Shown here: in pieces, positions 9,334 to 33,972 of the stretch
Position numbering within the stretch: position 1 is the stretch's first letter
Layout of the letters: each line of letters begins with the position of its first letter
Origin: a virus
Taxonomy: Duplodnaviria > Caudoviricetes
Strand: one strand, 5' to 3'
Virus record (IMG/VR): IMGVR_UViG_3300020400_000019
Coordinates: 1 to 34,427 of that record
Length of the DNA stretch: 34,427 bases
Translations under genes and position numbers: made by a program
Notes under the pieces: model-generated
Databases searched by the model: none
Told to the model about the DNA's origin: nothing
What the model saw: the letters and a program-made list of their open reading frames with translations, nothing else

Positions 9334-9656
9334 TGCCTGCCAAAAGAAAATCTACTAAAAGGTCTTATAAGACTCCTGCATGGCAAAGAAAAGCAGGTAA
9401 GAATCCTAAAGGTGGATTAAATGCTAAAGGTAGAGCATCTGCTAAGAGGCAAGGTAGTAATTTAAAACCACCTCTTAGCAAAGGCACTAGTCCAAGAAGA
9501 GTAAGTTTTGCTGCAAGGTTTGCAGGAATGAAAGGCCCTATGAAAGACTCAAAGGGTAGACCTACAAGAAAAGCATTAGCTTTAAAAAAGTGGGGATTTA
9601 GTTCTGTTGCTGCAGCAAGAGCATTTGCAAATAGACATAAAAAGAAAAAAAAGTAG
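9333..9656 (+). CDS. Highly basic small phage protein (probably DUF6321-like)
   Basis: AWQRKAGKNPKGGLNAKGR...RRVSFAARF.GMK...ALKKW pattern recalled from aquatic phages; K/R-rich. Confidence 0.65.
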   Translation: MPAKRKSTKRSYKTPAWQRKAGKNPKGGLNAKGRASAKRQGSNLKPPLSKGTSPRRVSFAARFAGMKGPMKDSKGRPTRKALALKKWGFSSVAAARAFANRHKKKKK

Positions 9657-9663
9657 GAATACT

Positions 9664-9843
9664 ATGCCAAGAAAAAAGAAAAAGAAAGGCTTGTATGCAA
9701 ACATACATGCAAAACGTAAACGAATCAAAGCTGGTAGTGGTGAAAAAATGAGAAAACCCGGATCTAAGGGTGCACCAACTGCAGCAAATTTTAAACGAGC
9801 TGCTAAAACAGCTAAGAAAAGAAAGCCAAGGAAAAGGAGATAA
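9664..9843 (+). CDS. Highly basic small phage protein
   Basis: Start moved to ATG 9664 behind AGGA; GLYANIHAKRKRIKAGSGEKMRKPGSKGAPT motif recalled from marine phages. Confidence 0.7.
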   Translation: MPRKKKKKGLYANIHAKRKRIKAGSGEKMRKPGSKGAPTAANFKRAAKTAKKRKPRKRR

Positions 9844-13924: not shown

Positions 13925-14845
13925 ATGTCAATAGAAAATTTATTTTTAACACAACAAATGAGAGAAACTCAAAGAAATCTTGAGAATCGTTTAGAAGAAG
14001 AAGAAGCTAGACAAAGAAAAGGTGGTCTTTTCAGTTCTGTTGGAAGTGGTTTAGGCGGATTTTTAGGAGGCATTGGTGGAACAATGTTAGGTGCAGCACT
14101 AGCTCCTATAACTGGTGGTTTAAGCTTAGCTGCTACTGCTGGTTTAACAGGGCTAGGTGCTACAGCAGGGTCACTTGCAGGTTCTAGAGTAGGATTAGAA
14201 TTAGGAGATGGCAAGCGATCTGATGCTGTTGATTTAGGAATGAATAGAAGTGCTGTAACAGGTGAAGAAAGAGAATTTGGTCAAGACATAAAAGATAGAT
14301 ACAGAAGAGGAATAAATGATTTTCAAGACTCTCTAAATAATAGAATACTATCAAGTGCTTTACAAACAGGTATTAAAGCAGCAGCATTTGCTTATGGTGG
14401 TGGAGCGTTAAATAAACCTACAATGGCAGAAGGCACTGTTGTAGATGCATCAGGTAATGTAGTGGATATTCCTAAAGCTAATATAGCTGGTGCACAAGCA
14501 TATCAACCTGCAAGTATGGGTGGTTCAGCAAGGATTAATGCTAGTCAATTGCCTGCACCTAGTGTAGCTCCTAGAGTTAATCCTTCACTTACTACTACCA
14601 CTGCTCCTGCAATAACTACAGCAAAACCACAACCAACTAATTTATTTGATCAGGCTATGATATCTCAACCTGATTTACCTGCAATGTCTAATCCTACTGT
14701 AGGTCAAGTTTTTGATAACTTTTCTAGACAAGCAGAATTAGCTCAGTTTCCTAATTCATTTACTGGGCCTTTAGCTAATAACATTCTACCTAATCAAAAC
14801 AATCAACTTTTTAATTATATAACAGATTTTAGAGGGAGACCCTAA
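13925..14845 (+). CDS. Ejection / DNA-pilot protein
   Basis: GAGG RBS; long Gly/Ala-rich hydrophobic segment plus low-complexity P/T/Q tail, typical of podoviral internal proteins. Confidence 0.6.
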   Translation: MSIENLFLTQQMRETQRNLENRLEEEEARQRKGGLFSSVGSGLGGFLGGIGGTMLGAALAPITGGLSLAATAGLTGLGATAGSLAGSRVGLELGDGKRSDAVDLGMNRSAVTGEEREFGQDIKDRYRRGINDFQDSLNNRILSSALQTGIKAAAFAYGGGALNKPTMAEGTVVDASGNVVDIPKANIAGAQAYQPASMGGSARINASQLPAPSVAPRVNPSLTTTTAPAITTAKPQPTNLFDQAMISQPDLPAMSNPTVGQVFDNFSRQAELAQFPNSFTGPLANNILPNQNNQLFNYITDFRGRP

Positions 14846-15486
14846 TGGCACATTCACCATATCATTTTGACTGGAACGTTACACCGTCAGGTTTAGAACC
14901 ACCTGCTAGCACAGAATCACCTGAACAATTTTTAGAAGAGTTTTCTAATATTACTGTAGATGGATTAAGAGACGAAGATCGAATATTTTTACCAAATATG
15001 GGTCAGATGAAACAAAACATAGCTATGTCTAGATTTGGATTAGGAAATGCTATGGCTGCACAAAAATTAGCTGGCACAAATAACCTTATAAATATGACTG
15101 CTGGAATTGGTGTTAATAGTATGGGGGAAGGTTTTGGTAGAAGACAGTCAGCTTTAACACAGGGGTTTAGAGACTTTAATCAACAACAACAAGCACAGCT
15201 TCAACAAAATATAGCAAGTTTTAGATCAGATGTTTTAGGTGAACAATTTCGTACTCAAGATGCATTAACTACAGCTTTAGGCAACTTAATACAAAGCGGT
15301 GAAAATGATGATTTAACCGTTACACCTTCTGGGCCACCTCTTCCTTCCTTTACTACAGTTCCTACAGATTATCAAGGAGATTCAATTCTTGTAAATGGAA
15401 CTAGATTACTTTGGACAGGATCAGGGTATGCTCTTGCTAATATGCCAAACGTAAATAGACCGATTTATTCGGGTACTGGTGGTTAA
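14845..15486 (+). CDS. Putative ejection protein
   Basis: Q/G/N-rich, Cys-free, helical; within the internal-protein cluster. Confidence 0.5.
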   Translation: MAHSPYHFDWNVTPSGLEPPASTESPEQFLEEFSNITVDGLRDEDRIFLPNMGQMKQNIAMSRFGLGNAMAAQKLAGTNNLINMTAGIGVNSMGEGFGRRQSALTQGFRDFNQQQQAQLQQNIASFRSDVLGEQFRTQDALTTALGNLIQSGENDDLTVTPSGPPLPSFTTVPTDYQGDSILVNGTRLLWTGSGYALANMPNVNRPIYSGTGG

Positions 15487-15512
15487 ACAATAAAATTAAA
15501 TAGGAGTTAATT

Positions 15513-16052
15513 ATGGCAGTAGATCCAGCATTAGTAGGCTTTGATGTAGTAAATACATTACAAGATACATTACTTAATTATGTAATGGCTAATAGAAGAA
15601 TGCAACAACAAGACAGACAGTTCAGAACTCAAATGGATTTTCAACGAGATCAATTAAAAGATAGTAGAGAAAGATTTGATATTACTACTGCTTTTAGAAC
15701 TAGAGCAGAACAAGATGCTTTAAATGCTCGTAAAGCTGATAAGGCTTTTGCATCTAGTTTATTAAGAGAAAAACAAAGTAAAGAAGAGTTTGCTGATTAT
15801 CAAAGAAAAATGAAAGAATATGCAAATATTAGAGAAGAAGGAGATTTTAATCCTTTTAAAAATGAAGAAGATTATATGGAAGAATTTAGGGAAATAACTC
15901 CTGAGTTTCCTGTTTATAGAGCAAATAAACTTCCTTCTTTTTATAGTGGTTTACCTAGCTTTGGCTTAGACTATTTATTACGCAGTGAAACTAATCCTGA
16001 GCAAATACTTTTTAATGCTCAGATGCAAAACTTAATACAAAAAGGACAATAA
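15513..16052 (+). CDS. Putative ejection protein (coiled coil)
   Basis: AGGAG RBS; Q/R/E-rich coiled coil, Cys-free. Confidence 0.5.
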   Translation: MAVDPALVGFDVVNTLQDTLLNYVMANRRMQQQDRQFRTQMDFQRDQLKDSRERFDITTAFRTRAEQDALNARKADKAFASSLLREKQSKEEFADYQRKMKEYANIREEGDFNPFKNEEDYMEEFREITPEFPVYRANKLPSFYSGLPSFGLDYLLRSETNPEQILFNAQMQNLIQKGQ

Positions 16053-16053
16053 A

Positions 16054-16494
16054 ATGGATCCAATGTTAGTACTACAATTAATAGATAATTATAATAGAAA
16101 CCCTCAAAGATACACAGATGAAGAAGCAGAGTTTATAGCTATGCTATCTAAACAAATGGGTGCAAGTTTTAAAAGAGAAGATAAATCTATTCGCAAAGGT
16201 TTGTTTGATCTTGTTGATACTGCTGTATTAGGTGCTATACCTAATACTTTAAGACCACGTTCTAGGGGTGAATCTGTTTATGGTGAAACAGGTATGGAAA
16301 AGTTTACTAGTGGTGCAGGTTCTTTACTTGGGTTAGCAGGTGGCTTAATAGGTGGATATGGTGCAGCAAGAGGAATTATAGGTTCTGGTGTACCACAACG
16401 TGCAGGTAGAGGTATCATCAATTATGGAAGAAATACTATGGGTAGAATGAATCCATTTTTAGGCATAGGTAATGTAGGTACTATTATAGGATAA
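16054..16494 (+). CDS. Putative ejection protein, paralogous to the N-terminus of the giant protein
   Basis: Shares V..L...Y...P...TD, G..FKR and PR..GE with aa ~9-85 of the next ORF; Gly-rich hydrophobic segment. Confidence 0.55.
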   Translation: MDPMLVLQLIDNYNRNPQRYTDEEAEFIAMLSKQMGASFKREDKSIRKGLFDLVDTAVLGAIPNTLRPRSRGESVYGETGMEKFTSGAGSLLGLAGGLIGGYGAARGIIGSGVPQRAGRGIINYGRNTMGRMNPFLGIGNVGTIIG

Positions 16495-19400
16495 TGGCAT
16501 CTCCTTATGAATCTTATAAAGTACGTGAGTTAGTAACAGCGTACCGATCAGATCCTACTATGTTTACAGATGATCAATTAGATCAACTGGAAGCATTAGC
16601 TTACGATAATGGAATAAACTTTAAACGTATTAATAGTGAGTTTAATCTAAATAGAGCTGTAAGACAGGCACAAGCAGGTTTTATAGAAGGGTTTAGTACC
16701 TTTGATTTAATACCTGAATCTCCTAGAAACACAGGAGAAGCTATCTTTAGACAGTTAGGACACCTTGCAGGATTTGCACCGGGTATATTAAAAGCTCCTG
16801 TAATGGGTCTATCTAAAATAGCACAAAGAGTAACTGGAAAGAAAACACGTAACCAGTTTACTGAATCTGTCTTAGAAGGTATTGGTGTTTTAGATAGATA
16901 TGCTGCACCTATGATAGCTAGTAGAGGAGCTAAGACTGCATTTAATGCTACAATAGATAAGGTGGGTGGAAGAACGTTAGAGTTTATGAAAAGAGGTTCT
17001 TCTGGTAGAGCTATTGCAGAAGAAGCTATTGGTTTAGGTACTGCAAGTGCCTTAAGCAACATTTGGAAAGGTGAAGATGCTATTATAGATGGGTTTATTG
17101 GTGGAGCAATAGCAGGTGGAGCGTTTGGCACTATAGGTAATTTTGCATCTATAGGTAATCGGTTAAGTGCTGGTAGAACACCCCAACAAATAGAAAGTGC
17201 TAATCAAGCATTACGTGGATTATTGGGTAGTGCCTTTCAAGGACTACCTTCTACATTAAGAAATGAACCTACAGAAATGCAGATATATAATTATTTGTTA
17301 GGTGGATTTTTTGGTTACAATGCTAGACCAGCAAAAGATATAGAAGCATCAAAGTGGTTATCTAAGAATAGAGACCCATCAGAAAGTTTTACTCCAGAAA
17401 GATCAAGTGATTGGAATACTATTAATAAAGAAGCTAGAGACTATATTACCTATGAGCACCCTATGGGATTCCAAAGATCTAATAATGAAACAGGTGGTAG
17501 CTCTGGAATAGCTCTTGGTTATTTAAAAAATCAGAATCCTAATCGTAATTATAGACAAGATGCTGAAACTCATTTTAAAAGGAATAATATAAATTATACT
17601 GAAAAAGACATTAATGACTTTTACAGAAACAAAGCAACTGAAGTATATCAAGCTAATGTAGAACGAGTACAAGATTCTATAGTGCTTTCTAAAAGCATAC
17701 CCAATCAAGAAATGGTAGACATGATGGATCCTGCTATCAAGCCTATTGTAGATTTAAACAACATTTCTAGAAACATTTTAAAGGCTAACAAAGACTACAA
17801 AACAAACTTAGAAGTTGGCGATATAATTGTAAAGACTGGTCAGTCTATAAATAAAGACGTTAATCAATTTATTAGTCAAATAAAGCAAAACTTTACTATA
17901 AATAAAAATATCGAAAAGAAACTAAAGAATTGGTATCATGAGTCTAGTAAAGTATTTCAACCAATGCCTTTAATGACTATTGATGGTAATAATATATCTG
18001 TAAAAGAAATAACTAAAGAAAGAATTAATAATGTAAGTATAGGTGAAAAAACTCCTGAACTTTTGCCAATACAAATAATACATCCTAAAGGTAATATTCA
18101 AATGATAACTCATGTTATCAAGGATAACATACCTGTTAAAATATTTAAACAGTCTAAAAATCCTGTTGAGCAAATAGAGTATGCATTGAATAAAAAAGAT
18201 TTAGGATTAATTAATTCTAAACTAGGTGAATTAGACTCGTATATATTTAGTGGAAATAAAGATAAGTTAACTGCAGTAAAAGCAAATTTTAGAGATGGTA
18301 ATTACACTATAAATGAAGTATTGGATGTATTAAGTAGAGGTAACGTAAGTAGATCAGAACTTCAAAATAAGTATGATAACTATGTTGCAAGAGAAAAAGA
18401 AATATTTGGTGACACACCTGCTACAGTAGAGTTAGCTCCAAGAAAGTTTATATCTAATATAATATATAGATTAGAACAGTCTAATTTACCATTTGAACAA
18501 GCATATAGGTTAATTGAGAAAGATAGTCCTTATGCTATTGATCCTGTAAACTTTAATAAACGTATACAATTATTATTGTCCAGAATGGAACCAATGCATA
18601 TATCTAGTTTTAAAGATGTACCTTTTAGTAATGAAGGTAAGGTTCAAAGAATATTAATTGTAAAAGATCCAGAAGTACCTTTTGAAGGTGGTTCTACTAT
18701 AAATAAAACTGACGGATCTCAAATGGTGTTGCCAGAAGTTTTAAAAGCAGAAGCAGAATTTATAGGATTAGATCCTAAAGTAACAGGTTCTAATAAGCCT
18801 GTTATTGTATTTAGAACAGAAAATGGTTTACTGGCAACTAAATCCAATGGTCAAGAAATGTTACCTGCTATGGAAAAGTTTGCTAGAGATAATAATATAC
18901 ATAGAATCTTTTTTGAGTCTTCTGTGAAACTTATGGACAACAATCGTCAGTTTATTACTGATTTAAAATACGATCCTAAAAAAGGAAGTTATTCAGCAGA
19001 TAATATAAGAACTATTGAGGTTCCTACAGAGGCTGTACAAATAAGTAGAAGCACCTATGAAAACTTACCTAAAGATGTAAATGGTACAACTATAGCGTTA
19101 CAAGCATATAATAATATGAATCTTGTACAAGGAGATAGAACGTTTTCAAAGCTATGGTTTGAACAGGTTATTGAACCTTCATTAAAAGGAACTACAGGTG
19201 CTAATGAATTAACATCTATTAAAGATTCTAAAGAGTTTATAAAAAAGTATGATGAACTAAATATGAACATAGAACATATGCCATATGAGTTCATGAAGCA
19301 AAAGCTATTAAAACAAAGACCAGATGATATATCCATATTTTTAGCAGATAGAATAATGAAGGCTGAACGTGAAGGACAGCTTAATGATCCAATGTCTGAA

Positions 19401-22400
19401 CGTATTGAATACGATAACGATAGTAATTTTAAAGATTTACATATACAAAATAATGAAATAGCAAAAGCTGTAGCTAATACATATATAGCTAGAAATACAT
19501 TGTCATTTGCTAACACAAACTATCATAATACATTACGTAAGTATTTTACTAGAAGAATTACTAATCCATTTATAGAAACAGGAATGAAAAGCTGGTTTAA
19601 AGGATTTATTGAACCAGAAGCTACACAATATATAGAGTTTGATCCGTTTAAAAGAGGTAATAGAACCATAGAAGAAGGAGAAGTATATCTTGACACAACT
19701 GTTAAACAAATGCCTGTGGTATTTGGGAACAAGAAATACAGTCTTGGCGAACTTTGGAACAAATATACTAGGGAATACTCCGATGGACTTTCCAAAGAAG
19801 TTCTTAAGCAGTATGATGATGCATTTACTTTCCTTGTTATACGTACACCTGCTGATTCAGTTAGTGGTGTGCGTGCATTACGTTTTCGTGGATGGACAGG
19901 ACAAAAAGGAGCTGGATCACTTATACATCCCAAAGACAAAGAAATGCTTGGAGGAGGAGATAATGATTCAGATAGTATGAAGATATTTCAAGGATTTAAA
20001 CCTGATCTATTAGAATACTATAAAAAGAACAAAGATGAACGTGCTAGATGGAGTACAGACAAACCTTATGTAGATAGATTAAATGAATTAGTACGTAATA
20101 AAAATATATCCAAAGAACTAGGAGAAGAACTATTAGATCCTTTTTATTTAATGTCTAGTGCACATAGAGTACATGCAGGGAGATATTCAAGCACTGGTAA
20201 AGATGGTTTAGGACTGGGATTAGCTAACGCTAATTATATGTTAAACTACTATGATTACATTAATTCTATTGGTGGTACATATAAATATCAGGGATTAGTT
20301 GTTAAGACTAAAGATAAATTTTCTCATAGATTTGCTTTAGATTTAAAAACTATGATTGTTAACAAGTCAGCAGATGCTAGTAAAGATCCTACTAAATCTG
20401 ATTATACTAAAGATCCTGATTTATTATTTGATGCTTTGTTTGAAGTGTCTTATAAAGGTAAACCATTAAATAGTGTAAAACTAAAAGGTCAAAACCCTAA
20501 TCAAAATCCATATACAAAATTTAATATGCTTATTAGTGGTAGCAATTTAGATGCAATAAAAAAGTCTATAAGACTAACTAAGCCTAATATTACAACATAT
20601 GAAACTGGCGAACCTGCTGCGATAGATATATTTCAGTACAAAAGAAATCTAAATGAAGTTAAGCAGCAAATGGATTCTATTAAAAAGGGTCAGGTTAATT
20701 TAGATATATATAGAAAACTGCAAGAGTCATTTGGTGACTCAATAGAGTTTGGTGGTATTAATAAAGTTCAACAAGCATTATACAGAAAGTCTAGAGACAA
20801 CTATATAAATAATCTTAGACAACAATATGAAGAGTTTCCTAAACAGTTTTTGGTAAAAAGTAATACATCTAAGTATTTAGAAAAACACTTTGATATACTG
20901 GCTAAAGAGTTGTCGTTTGAAACAACTAGTAACCATCAAAAGAATATGGCTACTGATCCTAATAAAGCATTGGATATTTTTGGTAAAGACATAGGACAGT
21001 ATGCAACTATTGAGCTATTAACAAAACAGTTTGGTGATATACAAAAGGCATTTTTAAATAAAGGTAAGAAAGTAAACTTAGTAGATGATGTTTATCCTAA
21101 GTTAAAAGAAGAAGCATTTGCTATAAAGGATACATTAAAAGTAAGAGACAATAAAGTAAGTAATGATTTAGATGGTCGTATAATGAATACAAGAACAAAG
21201 TTATCTAATATAGAAAAGTCTAATGGATTACAAGAAGGGTTACTTCAGGATTATTTTTCTTATTGGTTGTTAAGTCCTATACAAAGAAATCCTTCTCCAA
21301 CTAAAGTTGCTAGAACTGGTTATAGTAAAGATATACATGCTTCTAGAGCAATACCTATACAGGTAAAGAGAAACTTTTATAAAAAATTAGATGAGATATA
21401 CTTTGATGTATTAGGTGATAAACCACCGATAACAATAAAGTCTAAGAAGTTTAAAGACAGTGAGCTGTCAAATAATGTAGAAATAAATGAAGTATTAGAT
21501 ACTTCAGTAAATACAGGTGTATTAAAAGGATTAGCACTTACTAAAAAAGATTTAGCAGAAGTAAATGAGTTTAGTAAGTATATAAAAGATCATCCAATAT
21601 CTAAAGAAAACTTTAATGATTGGTTTACGCAAATGACGAGTCCTATTTTAGAAAGTAGAATCTTAGAAGGGCCTACTAGAGATGCTACAACTATTACATT
21701 GAAAGATGTTAAAGCATTAAACAATTATTTTAGGGAGTTACAGACTAAGAAGGGTTTGGGTGTAGGTCTTATTGATTATTACAGTTCTCCGATTACTACT
21801 AGTAGAAAACTAGAAGCTATGAATTTTCAAACTAAAGCCTTTAACATTAAGCAAAAGGTGTTAACAAAAGATGGATTAAAAGAAAAAAATGTACAGTATG
21901 TACTTAGTCCTATACTGTCTATAGCAAACTATATAAGAATGTCTGAAGCTGGTATTAATAAATACGAAGGTCGTAGAAAAGACATGCGTTTTAATCTTGA
22001 GAAAGAGTTAAATGAATTAGATACCAAGAAAGAAAAAATCTATATGGACAATATTATAGAGTTTAGAGAAGGCAGAAAAACGTTAGATCAATTAGATAAA
22101 TCTATTAATAAAGAAAAGTTTATTAAGCTTAATGAAGCTGTAACTGAGTTTAATAAAAACATGTGGGAATTTTGGGTTCCTACAAAAAATGCTGCAGGAA
22201 AAGAATATAATTGGAACACTATAGATGTAAATAATAATTATGGTGTGGTTAATAAATATATCAGGTATGATAAAAATGGCAGATTTAATCTAGAAAAATT
22301 TGAACAAGAAGTCATTATGGCTAAAAACCAAAGTGACAATATTATAAGACAAATAGGTATTGATGGTATTATGCGATATAGGTATGAATATCTATTAGAA

Positions 22401-24461
22401 AAGTCTATTGCTGGAAGCAAAAACAAAAAAGAAGCTAGAGAATTAGCTAGAAAGGAAAGTCCATTCTATCCTAGACGTAAACGTGATTATAATACGTATA
22501 TTCATCATAGCATACGTAATGTTCCAAAAAATATAAGAATAGAACAAGTAGAATGGATTAATAGAAATGCAGGTAAAATACCTAATAGAGTTCTAAGAGA
22601 ACTAACTATGGATAATGAGTTTTTTGAAATGAACGATAGAATAACTATTGATGCAGATTATAAAACTGCTTTTGAAAATTCTTCAACATCAATACCGGGT
22701 TCATTAAAAAAACGTGGAAATGATCCTATTCCATTTAAACGAGGTAGAGATTTATTTGACGATTATCAAAACTCATTGATAAAAGGTTATTTTAGAAATC
22801 TTATGAAGGTAAAAGCACAAAGTGATATAGATGCTTTGATGTCTAATATGAAAAATTATAAACCTTCAAAAAATGAAACTGCTCGTTTTAATAAAATGTA
22901 TAAAGGTCAAAGTATACCAGATAAATTAAGATACAAAAATTATTTAGATGTATGGGCAGACTTTGTAAGAAACTATGCAGAGTATAGCATGGGTTATCAA
23001 ACAAAGTTTAGTGATAAGATGATGACAGAACAAGGCAGAGACTTGTTGGCTTTGAATAAAAAGAACTTATTTTATACAACATCTGATCAAGTTATTGCCA
23101 ATCAATTAGAAAAACTATATCGTAGTAAACTTGGCGGTAGAGATAGTTTACCATTTGTAAACAACCTGCCTAAAGATCCTGCTGCTAGGCAGCCTTATTT
23201 ATATAATTTAATTAGGAATTTAGGAGCATCTGAGGCTAAGTATCAGCTATTGTCATTACTTGCTAATACAGGGTCATTTACTACTAATATATTTGGAGGT
23301 GGTACACTAGCAATAGGAAGTGCAGGTGTACGTAATTTTGTTGATTCATTTAACAATAAAACACTTGAAGCTGTTCTATTAAAAAATAGTAAAGGTGAAT
23401 ACACTACATTTTTAAATAATGGTAAACCTGTAAAAAATAGAAAAGGCATAGATAAATGGCTTGAAGAAAACGGATTCTTTGACAATTACATACAAAATGA
23501 ATTTGAATATAGACCTGAAGTAACAGCAAGATTAAAGAATGCTGGGGTAAATATAAAGAACTTATCTAGAGATTTAGTCGTAGCATTAAAATCTAAAAGA
23601 ACTGATAAGCAAGAAAGTGTTAATGATGTATTTAAAAGATATGGTATAAATGATATAATGCTAGAAGCAGGTGGTTTTTTTATGAAATCATCTGAACGTA
23701 TTAACAGAAAAAATGCATTTATTGCTCATGCACTACAAGCTGTTAGAGGTTTTGGAAAACAAGGTAGGGAAATGACACTAAATGACCCTTATGTATTTCA
23801 ACAAGCTATGAAAGGTATAGAAATGACACAGTTTTTATATCAAAATGCTTTTAGACCACCATTTATGGCTACAACAACTGGTAAGGTTTTAAACAGGTTT
23901 AAGTTATTTGCTTTTAACAGTGTACGAATACGTAAAGAGTTTTTTAGGCAAGCTAAAATGCAAGGCTTAAGACCTAATACAGAAGAGTATAAAAGATTTC
24001 AAGATACATTTCTTATTGATATAATGATGTATGGATTAGGTGCAGCATTTATGTTTAGTTTATTTGATACTACGTTACCACCACCATATGATTGGGTGCA
24101 GGCGTTAGCTGATTATACATTTGGAACAAAGCAGCAAAAAGAATTAGCATACTTTGGAGATCCTTTAGGCCCATTAAATGTTTTAAAACCACCCATTGCT
24201 AGAGTTCCTGAAGCATTTGGTGAACTAATTACTGGTAACTTTGATGATTTTACTGGATACACTATGTATACATTGTTGCCATTTGGTAGAGGTATACGAC
24301 AAGCTGTGCAATTATCCGATGACAGAGTAGGCAGAGGTCTTGAACGTGCTCCAGAAATACTGTTTAGGATACCCTACAATAAGTTTTTAAATAGACTTGA
24401 AAGAGCAAAAACAAAAAGAGAACGATTATCTTTTATAGATGAGCTACTAGAAGAATCCTAA
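16494..24461 (+). CDS. Giant internal virion protein containing a two-barrel RNA polymerase domain (putative virion RNAP)
   Basis: Ordered motifs TD740G, K768..K783, S810VK812, R1117TP, GGGD1156ND1158SD1160, G1235KDGLG, D1294ASKDP; Gly-rich hydrophobic N-terminus; C-terminal ERINR..AF...TQFLY....RP...G.....FK.F region like other large ejection proteins. Confidence 0.8.
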   Translation: MASPYESYKVRELVTAYRSDPTMFTDDQLDQLEALAYDNGINFKRINSEFNLNRAVRQAQAGFIEGFSTFDLIPESPRNTGEAIFRQLGHLAGFAPGILKAPVMGLSKIAQRVTGKKTRNQFTESVLEGIGVLDRYAAPMIASRGAKTAFNATIDKVGGRTLEFMKRGSSGRAIAEEAIGLGTASALSNIWKGEDAIIDGFIGGAIAGGAFGTIGNFASIGNRLSAGRTPQQIESANQALRGLLGSAFQGLPSTLRNEPTEMQIYNYLLGGFFGYNARPAKDIEASKWLSKNRDPSESFTPERSSDWNTINKEARDYITYEHPMGFQRSNNETGGSSGIALGYLKNQNPNRNYRQDAETHFKRNNINYTEKDINDFYRNKATEVYQANVERVQDSIVLSKSIPNQEMVDMMDPAIKPIVDLNNISRNILKANKDYKTNLEVGDIIVKTGQSINKDVNQFISQIKQNFTINKNIEKKLKNWYHESSKVFQPMPLMTIDGNNISVKEITKERINNVSIGEKTPELLPIQIIHPKGNIQMITHVIKDNIPVKIFKQSKNPVEQIEYALNKKDLGLINSKLGELDSYIFSGNKDKLTAVKANFRDGNYTINEVLDVLSRGNVSRSELQNKYDNYVAREKEIFGDTPATVELAPRKFISNIIYRLEQSNLPFEQAYRLIEKDSPYAIDPVNFNKRIQLLLSRMEPMHISSFKDVPFSNEGKVQRILIVKDPEVPFEGGSTINKTDGSQMVLPEVLKAEAEFIGLDPKVTGSNKPVIVFRTENGLLATKSNGQEMLPAMEKFARDNNIHRIFFESSVKLMDNNRQFITDLKYDPKKGSYSADNIRTIEVPTEAVQISRSTYENLPKDVNGTTIALQAYNNMNLVQGDRTFSKLWFEQVIEPSLKGTTGANELTSIKDSKEFIKKYDELNMNIEHMPYEFMKQKLLKQRPDDISIFLADRIMKAEREGQLNDPMSERIEYDNDSNFKDLHIQNNEIAKAVANTYIARNTLSFANTNYHNTLRKYFTRRITNPFIETGMKSWFKGFIEPEATQYIEFDPFKRGNRTIEEGEVYLDTTVKQMPVVFGNKKYSLGELWNKYTREYSDGLSKEVLKQYDDAFTFLVIRTPADSVSGVRALRFRGWTGQKGAGSLIHPKDKEMLGGGDNDSDSMKIFQGFKPDLLEYYKKNKDERARWSTDKPYVDRLNELVRNKNISKELGEELLDPFYLMSSAHRVHAGRYSSTGKDGLGLGLANANYMLNYYDYINSIGGTYKYQGLVVKTKDKFSHRFALDLKTMIVNKSADASKDPTKSDYTKDPDLLFDALFEVSYKGKPLNSVKLKGQNPNQNPYTKFNMLISGSNLDAIKKSIRLTKPNITTYETGEPAAIDIFQYKRNLNEVKQQMDSIKKGQVNLDIYRKLQESFGDSIEFGGINKVQQALYRKSRDNYINNLRQQYEEFPKQFLVKSNTSKYLEKHFDILAKELSFETTSNHQKNMATDPNKALDIFGKDIGQYATIELLTKQFGDIQKAFLNKGKKVNLVDDVYPKLKEEAFAIKDTLKVRDNKVSNDLDGRIMNTRTKLSNIEKSNGLQEGLLQDYFSYWLLSPIQRNPSPTKVARTGYSKDIHASRAIPIQVKRNFYKKLDEIYFDVLGDKPPITIKSKKFKDSELSNNVEINEVLDTSVNTGVLKGLALTKKDLAEVNEFSKYIKDHPISKENFNDWFTQMTSPILESRILEGPTRDATTITLKDVKALNNYFRELQTKKGLGVGLIDYYSSPITTSRKLEAMNFQTKAFNIKQKVLTKDGLKEKNVQYVLSPILSIANYIRMSEAGINKYEGRRKDMRFNLEKELNELDTKKEKIYMDNIIEFREGRKTLDQLDKSINKEKFIKLNEAVTEFNKNMWEFWVPTKNAAGKEYNWNTIDVNNNYGVVNKYIRYDKNGRFNLEKFEQEVIMAKNQSDNIIRQIGIDGIMRYRYEYLLEKSIAGSKNKKEARELARKESPFYPRRKRDYNTYIHHSIRNVPKNIRIEQVEWINRNAGKIPNRVLRELTMDNEFFEMNDRITIDADYKTAFENSSTSIPGSLKKRGNDPIPFKRGRDLFDDYQNSLIKGYFRNLMKVKAQSDIDALMSNMKNYKPSKNETARFNKMYKGQSIPDKLRYKNYLDVWADFVRNYAEYSMGYQTKFSDKMMTEQGRDLLALNKKNLFYTTSDQVIANQLEKLYRSKLGGRDSLPFVNNLPKDPAARQPYLYNLIRNLGASEAKYQLLSLLANTGSFTTNIFGGGTLAIGSAGVRNFVDSFNNKTLEAVLLKNSKGEYTTFLNNGKPVKNRKGIDKWLEENGFFDNYIQNEFEYRPEVTARLKNAGVNIKNLSRDLVVALKSKRTDKQESVNDVFKRYGINDIMLEAGGFFMKSSERINRKNAFIAHALQAVRGFGKQGREMTLNDPYVFQQAMKGIEMTQFLYQNAFRPPFMATTTGKVLNRFKLFAFNSVRIRKEFFRQAKMQGLRPNTEEYKRFQDTFLIDIMMYGLGAAFMFSLFDTTLPPPYDWVQALADYTFGTKQQKELAYFGDPLGPLNVLKPPIARVPEAFGELITGNFDDFTGYTMYTLLPFGRGIRQAVQLSDDRVGRGLERAPEILFRIPYNKFLNRLERAKTKRERLSFIDELLEES

Positions 24462-24495
24462 AAAAAACCCACGTAGGATAGACCTACGCAGGTTT
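24460..24495 (-). terminator. Intrinsic terminator ending the early arm at the convergence point
   Basis: - strand AAACCUGCGUAGG-UCUAU-CCUACGUGGGUUUUUUUU: 13-bp stem whose two G-U pairs form only on this strand, running into an 8-U tract. Confidence 0.85.
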
Positions 24496-24577
24496 AATAT
24501 TCTGGCTCAATGATTTGTTGTTTTTAATTTCACGTCAATATTTTGAAACATCAATCCAAACAAGTATTGAGCCATTT

Positions 24578-24706
24578 CTAAGATGGCTTATCTTTTGATA
24601 TGTAATAAGCACCTATTATAATTATAGCTGTCATTACAAACATAAATAAACCAATACCATATAATATAAAGTTAATAGCTGTTTCTGCTAAATCTATGAT
24701 AATCAT
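24578..24706 (-). CDS. Small membrane protein (42 aa, absent from ORF track)
   Basis: Hand translation MIIIDLAETAINFILYGIGLFMFVMTAIIIIGAYYISKDKPS; ATGA overlap with the upstream gene. Confidence 0.6.
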   Translation of the reverse strand: MIIIDLAETAINFILYGIGLFMFVMTAIIIIGAYYISKDKPS

Positions 24707-24843
24707 TGTTTAAACTCTTTACGAAACCAGTTTATCCAGAACCACCTATCAATAAACTTATCTACGATTAAGTAGATAATTAGAACAGGTATCATTATAT
24801 CGTGTCTATGCTGCACGATTGTTTCCCAATAGTATTCTATCAT
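24703..24843 (-). CDS. Small putative membrane protein (46 aa, absent from ORF track)
   Basis: AGGAG RBS; hand translation MIEYYWETIVQHRHDIMIPVLIIYLIVDKF... Confidence 0.6.
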   Translation of the reverse strand: MIEYYWETIVQHRHDIMIPVLIIYLIVDKFIDRWFWINWFRKEFKQ

Positions 24844-24851
24844 AATAACTC

Positions 24852-25211
24852 CTACATTATATTAATAAATGGTTTTAAGTACCATTTTGATTGCAAATAC
24901 TCTAAAGTAGACTCTAATAAAACAATCTGTTTCTTTTTAATAGTGTTTTCTCTACGTAATGACTTTTTAGTATTTTCACTTAATTTTAATTTATGTTCTA
25001 AATCATCAATACGTTTTTGAAGTTCTTTATCTTGTTTTAAAGACTTTTGTTTTAGTTTGTTAAAGTCCTTTATTAGATTGCTATGTGTTTCTCTTAGATC
25101 AATTAATTCTTCTGAAGGCAATCTAGGAACACCATAATGATCAAATACGTATTGAAATCCTTTTCGATACATTGGGTGTTCCATATTTTTTTCGTGTTCT
25201 AATAACTTCAT
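24852..25211 (-). CDS. Hypothetical coiled-coil protein
   Basis: 119 aa, heptad-rich; ATGA-coupled to the upstream gene. Confidence 0.65.
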   Translation of the reverse strand: MKLLEHEKNMEHPMYRKGFQYVFDHYGVPRLPSEELIDLRETHSNLIKDFNKLKQKSLKQDKELQKRIDDLEHKLKLSENTKKSLRRENTIKKKQIVLLESTLEYLQSKWYLKPFINIM

Positions 25212-25492
25212 GTTTGCTTTTTTCCAATTTTATAATAACTATCTGTATGATCCCATCCTGCATAATCGTAATATAAGTGATCAAGAGGTAAGTTATCTGA
25301 TTCTAAGTTTTCATGTGCATAATAATACTTCTGCATATAAAACTTTAGTTCATCAAATCCATTGTCGTTTTCTATAATATCTACAACAATTTGATCTAAC
25401 AAATTATTAAATGAGTTTAAGTACTCATCTGAATGTACCCTTATTTTTGTTATATCATTTGTTTTAGATCCATCAGGTTTTGTGTATTGCAT
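25208..25492 (-). CDS. Hypothetical protein
   Basis: AAGGAG RBS. Confidence 0.65.
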   Translation of the reverse strand: MQYTKPDGSKTNDITKIRVHSDEYLNSFNNLLDQIVVDIIENDNGFDELKFYMQKYYYAHENLESDNLPLDHLYYDYAGWDHTDSYYKIGKKQT

Positions 25493-25586
25493 TATTTCTC
25501 CTTAGACGTCAGCAGGGAAGGTCGAGGCGGTATGCTTGTGCACTAGCCCTCTACACTCTACTGTTCCCTGCATCGGTTTACTTAAG

Positions 25587-25826
25587 TTATTTACATCTTG
25601 GGCATATTTCTTTTTTTTTACCATACTTTGGGAAATCTTTGTAGTGATGATATATACCTCTTTTAGCTTTTTGGTTATTACCTTGTTTGCTTAGATATTT
25701 ATCTTTTTCCCAACAACTATCACAGAGTTTGCAGTATTTTATAGTTTCATCAGTACGTTTGCCTTCAGCAACAGCACCGTCATATCCTTTAGTAGTCGGT
25801 TCCCCAAACACCCAGTCTTCTAGCAT
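25587..25826 (-). CDS. Small zinc-binding protein
   Basis: CKLCDSC and CPRC; start probably ATG 25826 behind AAGGA. Confidence 0.6.
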   Translation of the reverse strand: MLEDWVFGEPTTKGYDGAVAEGKRTDETIKYCKLCDSCWEKDKYLSKQGNNQKAKRGIYHHYKDFPKYGKKKEICPRCK

Positions 25827-25989
25827 GTTGTAGTTCCTTGTCCATTTTATCAACTAACTGTTTTATTTTCTTAATGTCCTCGTAACTATGAAATGCAACA
25901 ATACTGTCAGCATTACTTATCATGTCTTTCATAATAGTAATCCTTTTAGTTAAATCATCTAATATCTTATCTATTTTATTAGCACTCAT
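25789..25989 (-). CDS. Hypothetical helical protein
   Basis: AGGA RBS; 66 aa. Confidence 0.55.
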   Translation of the reverse strand: MSANKIDKILDDLTKRITIMKDMISNADSIVAFHSYEDIKKIKQLVDKMDKELQHARRLGVWGTDY

Positions 25990-26120
25990 TACATTTCCTA
26001 CTATATACCCTTTTTAATTTTTGTAGTGGTCTAACGCCAACCAGACCACTACATCACTTATCAACCAATTTCAATAATATTTAACGATGACTTAACATCA
26101 CTTTCTGTTATTGTTATTGA

Positions 26121-26453
26121 TTATCCTGCTAACATCTTAAAGATGTTTAACAAGTCTTTGTATCGTAATACAACTAACGCTTCTTTACGATCTTCTTTTA
26201 ATATTTGTCCAAACACTTCATCGCATGGTTTTAAGTAGTCAGCTATAGACTTACGACCTTTAACCTGAAACTTCATAGGATTAAGGTCTTCCATGTTATT
26301 ACATTCTATAATCATGTCTACTTCTTCATGCCAACCTAATGATCTACCATCAGATCCCCAAGCACGTTTGGATACAAATCCATAACCTTTAGCAAGGTTT
26401 ACACATTCTCTTTCGATTCTGTTACCTTTTTGTTTTGGTGCTTTGCCACTCAT
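26121..26453 (-). CDS. Holliday-junction resolvase (Hjc-type PD-(D/E)XK nuclease)
   Basis: KQKGNRIERE...R...S...D...QVK pattern; downstream of the replication genes. Confidence 0.75.
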   Translation of the reverse strand: MSGKAPKQKGNRIERECVNLAKGYGFVSKRAWGSDGRSLGWHEEVDMIIECNNMEDLNPMKFQVKGRKSIADYLKPCDEVFGQILKEDRKEALVVLRYKDLLNIFKMLAG

Positions 26454-26662
26454 TCTGTTTCCTCTGAGTTTATATTACCTATAGCAACATTTACATTTCC
26501 AAGAATTACTTTTGTGCCATTTTTGTCTTTACCGTATACCGGATAACACCAATCAAAAACATTACCTTCTAAAATGTAATGTGCATCTTCTTGTGTAATG
26601 TCTATAATAATGTCGCCTATATTATTATCAGAATGTATCCAATCTTTTTTATTGTTATTCAT
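26450..26662 (-). CDS. Hypothetical protein
   Basis: ATGA overlaps on both sides; GGAG upstream. Confidence 0.6.
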   Translation of the reverse strand: MNNNKKDWIHSDNNIGDIIIDITQEDAHYILEGNVFDWCYPVYGKDKNGTKVILGNVNVAIGNINSEETE

Positions 26663-26862
26663 TCTTCTTCCTCCTGTGAGTGCATTCCTCCTATTTCATG
26701 GTATGTTGGCAAGCCTAACAATTTCCATATTTCATCTAAATAGTATTTACCATCTGACGACATCCTTTGTCTGTCAACATGTTCTAAGTCAGATAGATGC
26801 TCTATTAGTTTTTTAGTTTTATTAGTTGCTATGTTTAATGATACTTTTTTCATAATACCCAC
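26659..26862 (-). CDS. Hypothetical protein
   Basis: Coupled small ORF; start codon uncertain. Confidence 0.55.
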   Translation of the reverse strand: MGIMKKVSLNIATNKTKKLIEHLSDLEHVDRQRMSSDGKYYLDEIWKLLGLPTYHEIGGMHSQEEEE

Positions 26863-27071
26863 CTATTTGCTACGTTAAATCCTATAAACAATCTTAATGG
26901 CATAAAACCTATATGAAACGCTATAGCATTTCTCATTGATTTTTCTTGCTGTATTGCTATACTAAACATGTTTATCAGAATTATCCTGTAACCTGTTACT
27001 GATTTTGTTGTGTCCTTCTTCTTGCTTAATAGTGTCATAGACAGTATGTCTAGAATCCTTACTGTTATCAT
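26850..27071 (-). CDS. Hypothetical protein
   Basis: AAGGA upstream; fills the gap but overlaps the upstream ORF by 110 nt. Confidence 0.4.
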   Translation of the reverse strand: MITVRILDILSMTLLSKKKDTTKSVTGYRIILINMFSIAIQQEKSMRNAIAFHIGFMPLRLFIGFNVANRWVL

Positions 27072-27204
27072 ACTCTTCCTTCTGATGCTTAAATATCATC
27101 GTAGTTGTTTCATTTATGTCATGATCATGCACAAAAACATAGGCTCCGTTACCTTCTATTTTTTGTACTTTATCATCTTTAATATGTATTTCTACTATTG
27201 CCAT
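26962..27204 (-). CDS. Hypothetical protein
   Basis: GGAGG RBS; starts 29 nt downstream of a 19-bp motif copy. Confidence 0.6.
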   Translation of the reverse strand: MAIVEIHIKDDKVQKIEGNGAYVFVHDHDINETTTMIFKHQKEEYDNSKDSRHTVYDTIKQEEGHNKISNRLQDNSDKHV

Positions 27205-27232
27205 AAAACCTCCGATATGTGGTTTATAGGGG

Positions 27233-27251
27233 CAAAGATAAAGGAATCAGT
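27233..27251 (-). promoter_or_regulatory. 19-bp conserved motif, copy 4 (ACTGATTCCTTTATCTTTG)
   Basis: 16/19 positions invariant among four intergenic copies; occupies the loop of a 10-bp inverted repeat (27225-27260). Confidence 0.75.
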
Positions 27252-27261
27252 GCCCCTATAA

Positions 27262-29106
27262 TTAGTTTCTCTTTGAGAATGTGAATGTCTCATAGTCGAA
27301 TTGCAATGCTAATTCAAACATAGATTCGTCACGTGCCTTCAAAGACGATACTGTTCTTAGTTTTGACTTTGGATTTCTAATAATATCAGGGTTCTCGAAT
27401 GCAATATACTGATCTGATTTCTGTTCTATTGCTGAATTACCTTTACCGCTATGCACATCAAGTTTCTGACCTTCGCTCAACCTTGTTGATGAATATTTAG
27501 AAATGTGATGTATTGCGATAACAATAATATCTAGATCCATAGCCATGTCTTTTAAGGCATTAGCTATTGTTTCCTGTCTTACAAGATCATCATTACGTAC
27601 ATACTTAGCAGGTACTCTGTCTATTGTGTCTACTACAACTATTTTTGCTTCAGAATCTTGTACTACATTAGGTAAATCCTGAATGTCTGGTGACTTGCAA
27701 GTAAGTTGTAAATGCTCAACAGATTTCTTGGCAGCTTCTTTAAGTTCTATATCTCGATTTTGGAATCCAAGCTCGATTTCGTATTTAGTCATACCAAGAC
27801 CTGCTTGTACAAAACGCCTGTTAATCGTATCCTCATCTACTTCTAGCGACATAAATAAACACTTCATATTTGTAATCCTTGATATAAGATATTGTACAAA
27901 TGCAGTTTTACCTAAACCAGTGTCACCTATAATTGTAACAAGCTGACCTGTCGTAAAGTAATGAGACTTTTTCATAAATGGAAATACTTCCTTAAGATCA
28001 AAGGAACGGTCTTCCCAGTCTGTTTCATAGTATTTAGCAAGATTGTCAATCATGCTCTCAGCATTAAGAATGTCAGCAGTATCATCTAAATCTTTGTAAC
28101 GATACTTAAAACATTTATTATCGCAGTAAGGCACAAGCGTAGGATGATTACAACCATGATTGTATTCTCTACGCATTTGATCTACTACGATACGATTAAC
28201 TTCTTCCATTGGTAATGGGTTATCCATCTGTTCCATGTATGCTCTAGCATTGTGTAAACATTGTTGTTTATTCATACCTAGCTTTTTATTCCAGATAGCT
28301 ACCAAAGCTTGAAGATGTAAGTGACGTTTCTTTTCTACGTACCCAGCATTGTATATATGCTGTGCACATGTAATGATTCTTGTAGTGGATGCATTAGTAT
28401 TTTCAAATACTTTACGTACTTCATTAGTATTCTTTCTACTTACATCCATTGGTTCCAAACCAACAATCATTTCATGATGTATCTTTCTGACTGTTTTGTT
28501 TTGTACAGTTTTAGCATAGTAAACAATATCATCATAGGACATACTGTCCAGTTGCTCCTCTGTAACTGGTACTTTGTATGTTCTTGATTTATTGTTAAAA
28601 CTAAAACCTGCACGTATTAGTCTTCTTGAGTCATAAATATGATCTATGGTTGTACCAAAATCACGCTGCATTGTACTACGAACTTGATAAGCAAGATCTT
28701 TACTCTTTTGTTCTTTAAATCCGTAGACATTTGCTAGATGTATGTGAAAACCAGTACCTGAAAACCATATATTGTAATGTTGTTTATCAATTCCTAGTTC
28801 TGTCAAAACAGATAAAACATCATTAACATTATTGATTGTCATTTGGTCTGCAGTCAATCTATCAGGTGATTTAGCATGGTCTATGTCGATAACCAGCTTA
28901 TCAACAGCTTGTATACCATCGTATCCGACAACAGTTTTATGTTCTTCTATATATGGTACAATATCCTCACCGTACAAATACATACTACGATAAATCTCTT
29001 TGCCGATATTGTCCATTACAAGCTGATTGAAAAGCGGTTCTTCTATAACTTGATTACGGTTACTAACATTAGCAATGGCATACTCTACGTACCATTTACT
29101 ATCCAT
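27262..29106 (-). CDS. AEP primase(-polymerase) fused to a DnaB-like SF4 helicase
   Basis: AEP motifs VIDID, FSGTGFHIH, D.IYD.RRL.R; Walker A GDTGLGKT, SLE, Walker B VVVD, GNSAIEQKSD, KAR. Confidence 0.88.
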   Translation of the reverse strand: MDSKWYVEYAIANVSNRNQVIEEPLFNQLVMDNIGKEIYRSMYLYGEDIVPYIEEHKTVVGYDGIQAVDKLVIDIDHAKSPDRLTADQMTINNVNDVLSVLTELGIDKQHYNIWFSGTGFHIHLANVYGFKEQKSKDLAYQVRSTMQRDFGTTIDHIYDSRRLIRAGFSFNNKSRTYKVPVTEEQLDSMSYDDIVYYAKTVQNKTVRKIHHEMIVGLEPMDVSRKNTNEVRKVFENTNASTTRIITCAQHIYNAGYVEKKRHLHLQALVAIWNKKLGMNKQQCLHNARAYMEQMDNPLPMEEVNRIVVDQMRREYNHGCNHPTLVPYCDNKCFKYRYKDLDDTADILNAESMIDNLAKYYETDWEDRSFDLKEVFPFMKKSHYFTTGQLVTIIGDTGLGKTAFVQYLISRITNMKCLFMSLEVDEDTINRRFVQAGLGMTKYEIELGFQNRDIELKEAAKKSVEHLQLTCKSPDIQDLPNVVQDSEAKIVVVDTIDRVPAKYVRNDDLVRQETIANALKDMAMDLDIIVIAIHHISKYSSTRLSEGQKLDVHSGKGNSAIEQKSDQYIAFENPDIIRNPKSKLRTVSSLKARDESMFELALQFDYETFTFSKRN

Positions 29107-29110
29107 ATTA

Positions 29111-29671
29111 TTACAGCTCTATTCCGTCAAGTTGTACTTCAGGCTTTGATTCTTTCTTTTTGACGTTTTCGCCAAAGTTAAAGTCTTCATCACTGCCATC
29201 TGAATCACTGTAGTTCTTGATATAGCCTTTATTTACACTGTCCATAACCATCTTTTTAAGTATACCATCTGCTGAACCAGCTTGTGCAACACGATCAAAG
29301 TTATTCCAGTAAGGTTTACCTGAATCTTTGAGCTTGTTTGTAGGATAAGAACACATCTTAATTTGCCTACCAAGACAATCTCTTAGCCATTCTTCTGGAA
29401 TACCATAGTCTGCTTGTACTGGTAGACCTCTTTTACCAAGTGCACACTCAAAGAACTCAGCAATCTTAAAAGCACTACCCCATGATTTACGATCATCAAG
29501 TGGTACTGTTTTATTAAAACTACCGAATATAGTTATCTGGTCTTCCCAGTCGTGTCTTACATTTGCAGTCAAGAACAAGTCTGGTACAAACTTCATCCAG
29601 TCTTGTTTTGCTTCGTATTGAACATCAACGCTAATAATTGTTGCTGTTCGTTCCATACCTCCTGCCATCAT
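29111..29671 (-). CDS. Putative single-stranded DNA-binding protein
   Basis: GGAG RBS; between the SSAP and the primase-helicase; beta-rich core with acidic tail (DSDGSDEDF). Confidence 0.55.
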   Translation of the reverse strand: MMAGGMERTATIISVDVQYEAKQDWMKFVPDLFLTANVRHDWEDQITIFGSFNKTVPLDDRKSWGSAFKIAEFFECALGKRGLPVQADYGIPEEWLRDCLGRQIKMCSYPTNKLKDSGKPYWNNFDRVAQAGSADGILKKMVMDSVNKGYIKNYSDSDGSDEDFNFGENVKKKESKPEVQLDGIEL

Positions 29672-30333
29672 TTAGTCTCCTTTACTTTTTTGTTTGTAGA
29701 TTCAGCTTTAAGTGTTTCTTCTAACACTTTTAACTGTGCATATTTTCCGACAACTTCATCATTAGATCTGTCTTTTTCTGCTAACCATTTATCTACTCCA
29801 GCATTTATTGACAAACCTGTTTTGGTTTTATGATTCTTAAACCATTTTGAGTTAGATAAACGTTTTAGCTTTACAGTATCTTCTGATAATGTTTTTACTT
29901 CACCTTTAGTGTTTTTTCTTAACTCACTAATGTGATTACGATTATCCATGCTGTCAGCATCTGCAGTATCGTCAATAGCAAATAAACCGTTACACGCATA
30001 CTTGCGTGCATATGATGACGTAGCACCTGTGATTTGACTATCATCCATACCTTTCTTAGATACAGATTCTCTAGCATAGCCATTAACTGATACTTCGTCA
30101 TTACCATCACCAAATGTTGCTGTAGCTTTGATGTAGTTACTACCACCAATGTTTACAATCTCATCTGAAACAATAAGATAACAACCAGTTTCATTGAGTA
30201 ATTGTTTTACACCTTGAAAAATGTCTGCAAGATTGCGATAGTTGTATTTACCGAAATCATTTCTATGACCTTTTTCGACTTTTAGTGATGTCTGAACTAT
30301 GTTCAGCTTTTCATGTATGTTCATATCTTTCAT
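29668..30333 (-). CDS. erf: ERF-family single-strand annealing protein
   Basis: NDFGKYNYR..DI and KKGMDDSQITGATSSYARKYA.NGLF.IDD signature; start moved to ATG 30333 behind AAGGGA. Confidence 0.88.
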   Translation of the reverse strand: MKDMNIHEKLNIVQTSLKVEKGHRNDFGKYNYRNLADIFQGVKQLLNETGCYLIVSDEIVNIGGSNYIKATATFGDGNDEVSVNGYARESVSKKGMDDSQITGATSSYARKYACNGLFAIDDTADADSMDNRNHISELRKNTKGEVKTLSEDTVKLKRLSNSKWFKNHKTKTGLSINAGVDKWLAEKDRSNDEVVGKYAQLKVLEETLKAESTNKKVKETK

Positions 30334-30454
30334 ATATTTCCCTTTTGTTATTATTAAATCTTCTGGGATGTTCATGGCGACCGTAATATCCATGTTTACG
30401 ACAAGTTGCGATCTTGCTCTGGCCTAGTCCATCCCAGTTTCTCTTATAAGTCTT

Positions 30455-30473
30455 CATAGATAAAGGAAGCAGT
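30455..30473 (-). promoter_or_regulatory. 19-bp conserved motif, copy 3 (ACTGCTTCCTTTATCTATG)
   Basis: Intergenic, upstream of the ERF-SSB-primase/helicase block. Confidence 0.75.
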
Positions 30474-30549
30474 GCCAATTATGGAGAATGAATGCGGAGT
30501 TCATACCTTTTCGAGAAGATACCTAACCGACACTGCTGTCCTATTTTAT

Positions 30550-31873: not shown

Positions 31874-31882
31874 TTTATTCTC

Positions 31883-33310: not shown

Positions 33311-33329
33311 CAGAGATTAAGGAAACAGT
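33311..33329 (-). promoter_or_regulatory. 19-bp conserved motif, copy 2 (ACTGTTTCCTTAATCTCTG)
   Basis: Intergenic; terminal G is 29 nt before the next ATG. Confidence 0.75.
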
Positions 33330-33953: not shown

Positions 33954-33972
33954 CAAAGATTAAGGAAGCAGT
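33954..33972 (-). promoter_or_regulatory. 19-bp conserved motif, copy 1 (ACTGCTTCCTTAATCTTTG)
   Basis: Begins at the last base of the nuclease stop codon; its end overlaps a TTGGCA-ACTC-TGCCAA hairpin. Confidence 0.75.

Follow-up and report, generated by a model that had tools for sequence, protein, structure and literature searches.

Does the giant gene at the end of the virion arm of viral record IMGVR_UViG_3300020400_000019 encode an RNA polymerase (RNAP) that enters the host with the DNA and, if so, from which sites would it transcribe? The window analysed here is this complete record (34,427 bp; 77% complete). The gene, at 16494..24461, is a single uninterrupted open reading frame (ORF) of 2655 amino acids (aa). 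It closes the plus-strand virion arm, and the minus-strand arm converges on it. The protein had no match in Pfam, PHROGs, PDB sequences or GenBank phages. An earlier, sequence-only reading had placed a two-barrel RNAP inside it, and our analysis supports that proposal. Judged by a predicted model, the region aa 651-1360 almost certainly has the two-barrel RNAP fold. The 2655-aa protein is very probably an active polymerase. Coordinates of all features are given in the table.

In the model, two double-psi beta-barrels lie within one chain. The best Foldseek match was gp66, the virion RNAP of Cellulophaga phage phi14:2 (Crassvirales; PDB 6VR4). The other best whole-core matches were QDE-1 and RDR2, which are eukaryotic RNA interference (RNAi) polymerases (PDB 7Y7P, 2J7N, 7W84), and the single-chain RNAPs of phages P74 and P23-45. 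The motifs behind the proposal were located as follows: R1117-T-P at nt 19842, with DNDSD (aa 1156-1160, nt 19959-19973) 39 aa past R1117; D740 of TDG at 18711; K768 and K783; FESSVK from 18912; GKDGLG at 20196; and ADASKDP at 20370. Two details required correction. The HP motif exists, but ahead of the span quoted for it, at aa 1145 (nt 19926). In the proposed DxxK motif the Asp is well kept (D1294 in 144 of 153 long homologues) but the Lys is not (K1297 in 37/153). The first-barrel Asp and Lys residues, bridge helix and trigger loop of single-chain two-barrel RNAPs were all found, with equivalence to known polymerases assigned by order and spacing. On that basis, R1117 is the counterpart of QDE-1 R962, which binds the 2'-OH according to the available part of the QDE-1 source.

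We then turn to the family. A word-indexed search with the core found 58 proteins. Among 50%-identity representatives, at least 200 clusters reached E 0.001 or better, and 150 of those 200 were returned. A search pattern for R-x-P followed by DxDxD matched 199/206 stored proteins in 25 motif spellings, and six of the seven misses were fragments shorter than 310 aa. With the pattern corrected, both motifs occurred in all 153 homologues of at least 2500 aa. In the alignment of these 153, R1117, P1119, D1156, D1158 and D1160 were invariant. Neither of the two findings that would have refuted the proposal, a missing double-psi fold or variable Asp residues, was obtained. D740 was kept in 149, K768 and K783 each in 150, and K812 in 151. 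The homologues were gathered by similarity to a region containing the motif, so these counts carry some selection. On sequence conservation, a chance origin of the RxP/DxDxD motif is excluded. DNDSD had been called an unusual variant, which overstates the case. The fourth position is G in 54, I in 37, S in 33 and A in 29 homologues. Hence, DNDSD is a local spelling.

The core is framed by two further conserved parts. An N-terminal profile matched 151/154 long proteins and a C-terminal profile 152/154; thus, the three-part layout is family-wide. Residues 10-89 of the polymerase are paralogous to the adjoining upstream 146-aa ORF (E 2e-6), and the N-terminal profile also matched upstream-block ORFs in more than 30 related loci. 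A head common to two neighbouring Cys-free proteins suggests a shared packing or ejection signal. The gene also occupies an ejection-block position at the end of the virion arm, where the ejection role of its neighbours would likewise follow from their position. The C-terminal 756 aa are predicted to be helical (predicted local distance difference test score, pLDDT, 72) and matched no solved fold. The PLxRFG model NF032893 matched the C-terminus weakly in 47/53 members (E 3e-6 to 8e-10). For the window protein the match was 26-28 bits, where the curated cut-off is 100, and ~105 of 681 positions were aligned. A viral library gave strong matches to the same unnamed entries, and weak ones to polyvalent proteins and internal virion protein D. 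The absence of Cys, which had been noted as a feature of the protein, is correct (none in 2655 aa; none in 145/153 long homologues). However, the window's two fibre-like genes and its endolysin are also Cys-free. Hence, this state is not specific to ejection proteins.

Some homologues carry additional modules. An AlkB-type 2OG-Fe(II) dioxygenase (PF13532) occurs in six (P0026, P0028, P0029, P0033, P0034 and P0037). In the three that were mapped it occupies two different sites, either directly past the catalytic barrel or at ~aa 1820-1980. P0026 and P0029 have an additional weak DUF4326 match ahead of the catalytic motif. The distant homologues P0094, P0095, P0082, P0147, P0103 and P0174 carry NADAR with DUF7831 and YpsA/SLOG, SF1 helicase, or HhH modules; two of them reach 5249 and 5818 aa. 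Amid bacterial genes in an Ignavibacteriae metagenome-assembled genome (L133 8540-9325; 53% GC) there is a 262-codon piece of the C-terminal domain, possibly left by a decayed phage.

Which phages carry this enzyme? A near-identical record, G001 (44,357 bp; 99% complete), supplies a terminase, a P22-type portal and an SU10-type capsid and, together with the window, SU10-type adaptors. Scanning viral contigs yielded 275 confirmed stretches. Among the best 80 of these, which were kept, most have the same gene layout. The SU10-type capsid was found in 36/39 records searched. Near-complete relatives are mostly 42-53 kb, below the 90-100 kb or so of crAss-like phages, and G006, of 47,090 bp, carries terminal repeats. 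Two longer related records measure 73 and 89 kb; the 89-kb one has two capsid genes. The family terminase profile matched Vibrio phage VS-ABTNL-3 (1e-48), Microcystis phage Mel-JY34 (7e-42) and N4 gp68 (3e-29), and the core profile matched none of the large ejection-slot proteins of the first two, which are small isolates. The family large terminase (TerL) and portal profiles, and a single major capsid protein, found no match among the proteins of phi14:2, the sole direct Crassvirales reference in this comparison. In the reverse direction, 38 stretches gave no match at E<10 to phi14:2 TerL, a query that finds 113 GenBank records at 1e-20. Therefore, on the markers tested, the phage is not a member of Crassvirales, and the suggestion of a distinct lineage holds for its head genes as compared with phi14:2. 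The fourth DFDxD residue of the 2655-aa protein is Ser, not the Ile or Val of crAss-like enzymes. Nor does the phage fit Schitoviridae, which have a T7-like virion RNAP, an RNAP II and genomes of ~75 kb: its core is predicted to be two-barrelled, no RNAP II match was found among the scanned ORFs, and portal and capsid did not match those of N4.

The sites from which the polymerase might transcribe were sought in the minus arm. A repeat search there returned one repeat family, located in intergenic gaps. Its box pattern has four copies in the window, against 0.19 expected by chance, and six in G001, all on the minus-arm coding strand. An unbiased search of intergenic DNA from 38 related stretches recovered a pyrimidine-rich box with 5-15 copies in 15 stretches; shuffles gave 2-4. 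Three other stretches have 4 copies, a first pass gave 7 in L129, and the remainder are at chance level. Box variants loosely track the polymerase tree, with GCTTCCTTTATYTNTG in the near clade and CTCTCCCTTTTTTATG, TGCTCTTTTTTTATG or TACCCTTTTTTTTG further out; in ten rows of the distant clade of this quick tree the same search detected no box. In whole genomes, 33/34 matches (five genomes) and 12/12 (G028) lie on the coding strand of the minus arm. With sites on the late-gene side dropped, 88/120 copies end 17-54 nt ahead of an ATG led by a Shine-Dalgarno (SD) sequence. When 2.9 million viral contigs were scanned for the exact box, 39 matches turned up in 36 contigs. Nineteen of the 31 that were searchable have the lineage's terminase or helicase and 12 have no marker; the polymerase C-terminus is present in 6/6 near-complete box-bearing contigs. 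The box is distributed as a phage-RNAP promoter of the N4 or P23-45 type would be: repeated, intergenic, on one strand and in the presumed early region only. We regard it as a phage-specific signal and a candidate promoter, which is the likeliest single function, though the evidence leaves this assignment evenly balanced.

Features of the window, with positions in nucleotides
Position	Strand	Feature	Remark
13925..16494	+	Four Cys-free ORFs (306, 213, 179, 146 aa), from the 854-aa tail gene to the polymerase	Likely ejection proteins, judged by position
16494..24461	+	2655-aa protein: N-terminal module, single-chain two-barrel RNAP core, helical C-terminal domain	Closes the virion arm
16494..17333	+	N-terminal module, aa 1-280; 12% Gly; one hydrophobic segment at ~aa 196-220	
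18444..20573	+	Polymerase core as folded, aa 651-1360; pLDDT 87, predicted template modelling score (pTM) 0.86	Predicted structure
18621..19058	+	First (beta-type) double-psi barrel, ~aa 710-855; D740, K768, K783, K812	
19554..20045	+	Catalytic (beta-prime-type) double-psi barrel, ~aa 1021-1184; R1117-x-P1119, D1156/D1158/D1160	
20157..20375	+	Long helix aa 1222-1258 at the bridge-helix position; at the trigger-loop position, a helix that ends at D1294	Assigned by order and model secondary structure; compared with QDE-1 D1116 from the available passage
22191..24458	+	Conserved helical C-terminal domain, aa 1900-2655; weak PLxRFG (NF032893) match, aa 2388-2502	Sub-cut-off match
24465..24495	-	Hairpin resembling an intrinsic terminator, with a T run, where the minus arm ends	No box
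27233..27251	-	Box copy past the primase-helicase gene	In the loop between the arms of a 9-bp inverted repeat
27262..30393	-	Central genes of the presumed early/replication arm: primase-DnaB fusion, 186-aa ORF, ERF recombinase	
30455..30473	-	Box copy upstream of the ERF gene	
33311..33329	-	Box copy 28 nt upstream of an SD-led 85-aa ORF	
33954..33972	-	Box copy, then a small GGCA/TGCC hairpin, ~43 nt upstream of an SD-led 110-aa ORF	

Two observations on box surroundings stand apart. The copy past the primase-helicase gene is enclosed by its own conserved inverted repeat (27224-27260), unlike the other copies, and the same was seen in L097, L100, L123 and L129. Many minus-arm start codons of the near clade are preceded by an extended conserved leader, AACGTAGGAG(T), with seven copies in L094, five in L117 and an instance at ~33290 of the window.

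Could the box end transcripts instead of starting them? The polymerase would still be real and injected, and the box would be a terminator, made of a hairpin with a conserved U-rich tail, possibly specific to this enzyme or part of a terminator-promoter cassette. Upstream hairpins are indeed enriched: those with a z score below -2 accompany 59/120 copies (24/59 and 35/61 taken separately) but 37/190 controls. Several copies in L125, L109 and L111 look like a textbook hairpin followed by T6, and 66/127 copies lie within 64 nt after a stop codon. Known terminators of the P23-45 virion RNAP (vRNAP) have a conserved 26-nt motif, as the available part of 10.1101/2022.12.01.518664 describes. Conversely, the first copy opens the arm in 13/18 genomes (one stretch starts at a contig end), and in a rough test 16/17 arms have no copy at their end, as with the terminator-like hairpin of the window. 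Hairpin arms vary while the box sequence stays constant, even where no hairpin forms. The RNA strand is not richer in G-U pairs (188/1713) than the template strand (181/1768), and pairing of this kind favours neither strand. In addition, there is scant space for a separate promoter ahead of the next SD. We consider the terminator unlikely, though it is the strongest of the alternatives.

The box might also be read by the host, either as a host-RNAP promoter like the Bacteroidota -7 element (consensus TAnnTTTG) or as a site for RNase III/RNase E-type processing or for translational control. Such sites in a long early message have a precedent in T7. Several copies end in TATCTTTG (window 27233; L104, L130), and anti-SD-like CTTCCT/CTCCCT occurs inside the box with hairpins nearby. 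However, the middle-T position of TTTG varies freely (A14 C20 G9 T16), TA is missing in other lineages, and ten more conserved upstream bases are left unexplained. Strong SD sites fit a Bacteroidota host poorly. The exact box is largely confined to this phage lineage among the 2.9 million contigs, and the virion arm has no copy. Host use of the box is a slightly weaker candidate than termination.

That the enzyme is not delivered by the particle is improbable. It would then be a non-virion late-gene polymerase, or its core would be mainly a motor that pulls DNA in. However, the gene sits at the end of the virion arm, away from the early genes; the protein is Cys-free, with ejection-type domains on both sides of the core; and the opposite arm holds the sole repeated box specific to the phage. 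A motor role would not conflict with delivery. A core that has been turned to DNA replication, for making primers or for DNA synthesis of the PolD kind, considered because the genome has no recognisable DNA polymerase, is very improbable, since R1117 is invariant, the phage has its own primase-helicase and the best structural matches are RNA polymerases.

We favour a packaged and ejected two-barrel RNAP that transcribes the opposite-strand replication arm, probably from the pyrimidine-rich box; as a whole, this is a probable reading. Delivery of the 2655-aa polymerase as an early enzyme by the virion is, taken separately, quite probable. Where the gene lies, the domains around the core and the precedents of gp66 and N4 suggest packaging, injection and early transcription. 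According to PMC13434306, the role of third ejection protein, filled by gp16 in T7, falls to the vRNAP in N4-like phages; PMC10172136 reports that crAss001 packs its polymerase proteins as cargo. The middle part is predicted to fold like the injected RNAP of crAss-like phages. Phages otherwise unlike them therefore likely bring a transcription enzyme of their own into the host.

The events may be pictured as follows. The gene's position among the virion genes suggests synthesis late in infection. Packing would use the N-terminal head common to the upstream ejection ORF. The chain would then thread, partly unfolded, through the short tail. Its Gly-rich N-terminal and PLxRFG-like C-terminal parts may act at the membrane or channel, like the third ejection protein in T7 and N4. 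After refolding, D1156/D1158/D1160 and D740 would bind Mg, R1117 would select ribose, and K768/K783 would hold RNA, by analogy with QDE-1 as far as the available source describes it and by order and spacing. Finally, the enzyme would recognise the box, often exposed beside an inverted repeat that could extrude. Transcription would start near the terminal TG of the box and yield short SD-led early messages. Box recognition taken alone is a matter of equal chances, and the same applies to the start site.

Other observations concern the genome at large. No DNA polymerase was recognisable in window 24462-34427 or L011 4300-6433; the largest replication gene encodes the 614-aa primase-DnaB fusion, possibly a primase-polymerase. 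In G005 (L020/L095), compared with window 16494-34427, the replication arm has 93-97% DNA identity, but the polymerase gene has 68-75% over most of the aligned length and the core protein 47%. Hence, the polymerase and ejection block have been exchanged, and the genome is a mosaic. An AT-rich region of nested inverted and direct repeats of ACTAATTAGT (L011 6346-6444, in G001) lies in the inter-arm divergent gap upstream of the small terminase. It is a possible origin, packaging site or late control region. Two small, very basic ORFs (DUF6321 and a Lys/Arg-rich neighbour) lie amid the lysis genes at window 9333-9843. A 300-nt gap at 32084-32381 has no sizeable minus-strand ORF and no Rfam match, and contigs of three RNA libraries cover it. 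One complete relative (L131; 46,061 bp) is a separate contig in a Prochlorococcus single-cell assembly, and that cell is either a host or the phage a hitch-hiker.

Injected two-barrel polymerases are known already from crAss-like phages, jumbo phages and Thermus phage P23-45. What is new is an injected-type enzyme of this kind in small podoviruses with different head genes. The family has at least 200 clusters at 50% identity, is unnamed in the profile libraries searched, and widens the pool of phage relatives of the eukaryotic RNAi polymerases. We found no description of it in the literature searched, of which the supplements of PMC7886860 and PMC5512222 may hold members; a term search of the main text of PMC5512222 turned up nothing on two-barrel polymerases. 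The case of gp66, for which no upstream motif was detected, raises the question of how a single-chain two-barrel enzyme without a sigma factor locates its start sites. Here, enzyme and candidate site share one genome, so they can be tested jointly in vitro without phage culture. A broader interpretation is more doubtful, falling somewhat short of an even chance. It holds that a large, undescribed group of 44-53-kb aquatic podoviruses uses one chain (~18% of the genome) as third ejection protein and two-barrel RNAP, which reads its own pyrimidine-box promoters beside an extruding hairpin and is structurally as close to QDE-1 as to gp66. If so, the box would be the first promoter defined by sequence for a gp66/RNAi-type enzyme. 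One ejection slot would then hold a T7-type enzyme in N4 and a cell-type enzyme here, and injected polymerases would be exchangeable cargo on a shared ejection scaffold.

Among known systems, gp66 is closest. Like gp66, the enzyme is a single chain with two double-psi barrels, RxP 39 aa ahead of DxDxD and a K-K spacing of 15, and its gene adjoins other ejection-type genes at the end of the virion module. Unlike gp66, with which sequence similarity is undetectable, it has its core at ~aa 1160 of 2655, with an added Gly-rich N-terminal module and a 750-aa PLxRFG-like C-terminus; gp66 has 2180 aa, and next to it gp65 and gp67 are giant proteins in their own right. At the fourth motif position this family has G/I/S/A, the gp66 group I/V. 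The genome is 44-53 kb, against 100 kb for phi14:2, and the head genes differ. In the available part of 10.1101/2020.03.07.982082, gp66 prefers single-stranded DNA and no upstream box was detected for phi14:2 early transcripts, whereas a repeated one occurs here.

The remaining systems are more distant. QDE-1 and RDR2 share ~12% identity with the core and have an R-D spacing of 45 rather than 39; unlike them, this enzyme is phage-encoded and embedded in a virion-type protein. Thermus P23-45 gp96/gp64 and P74 gp62 are single-chain two-barrel RNAPs in which no sequence similarity to this family was found; the fusion partner of gp96 is a siphovirus tape measure rather than a podovirus ejection protein. 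The P23-45 vRNAP has a promoter motif as well as a conserved terminator motif (10.1101/2022.12.01.518664). The weak C-terminal PLxRFG match recalls phage polyvalent proteins (PLxRFG/LPD), as do the homologues with swapped-in AlkB, NADAR, YpsA/SLOG, DUF4326, SF1 helicase and HhH modules, although no accessory module was detected in the window's 2655-aa copy. N4 gp50 (Schitoviridae) is likewise a giant chain, with an N-terminal domain, polymerase and C-terminal domain in the T7 gp16 slot, and N4 early promoters are associated with hairpins (PMC13434306, available part). However, its catalytic domain is T7-like, not two-barrelled, and the genome here is smaller. The N- and C-terminal profiles had no significant match to the part of N4 gp50 compared, and portal and capsid likewise had no N4 match. 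The enzyme probably works like gp66, sits like N4 gp50 and belongs to neither phage group.

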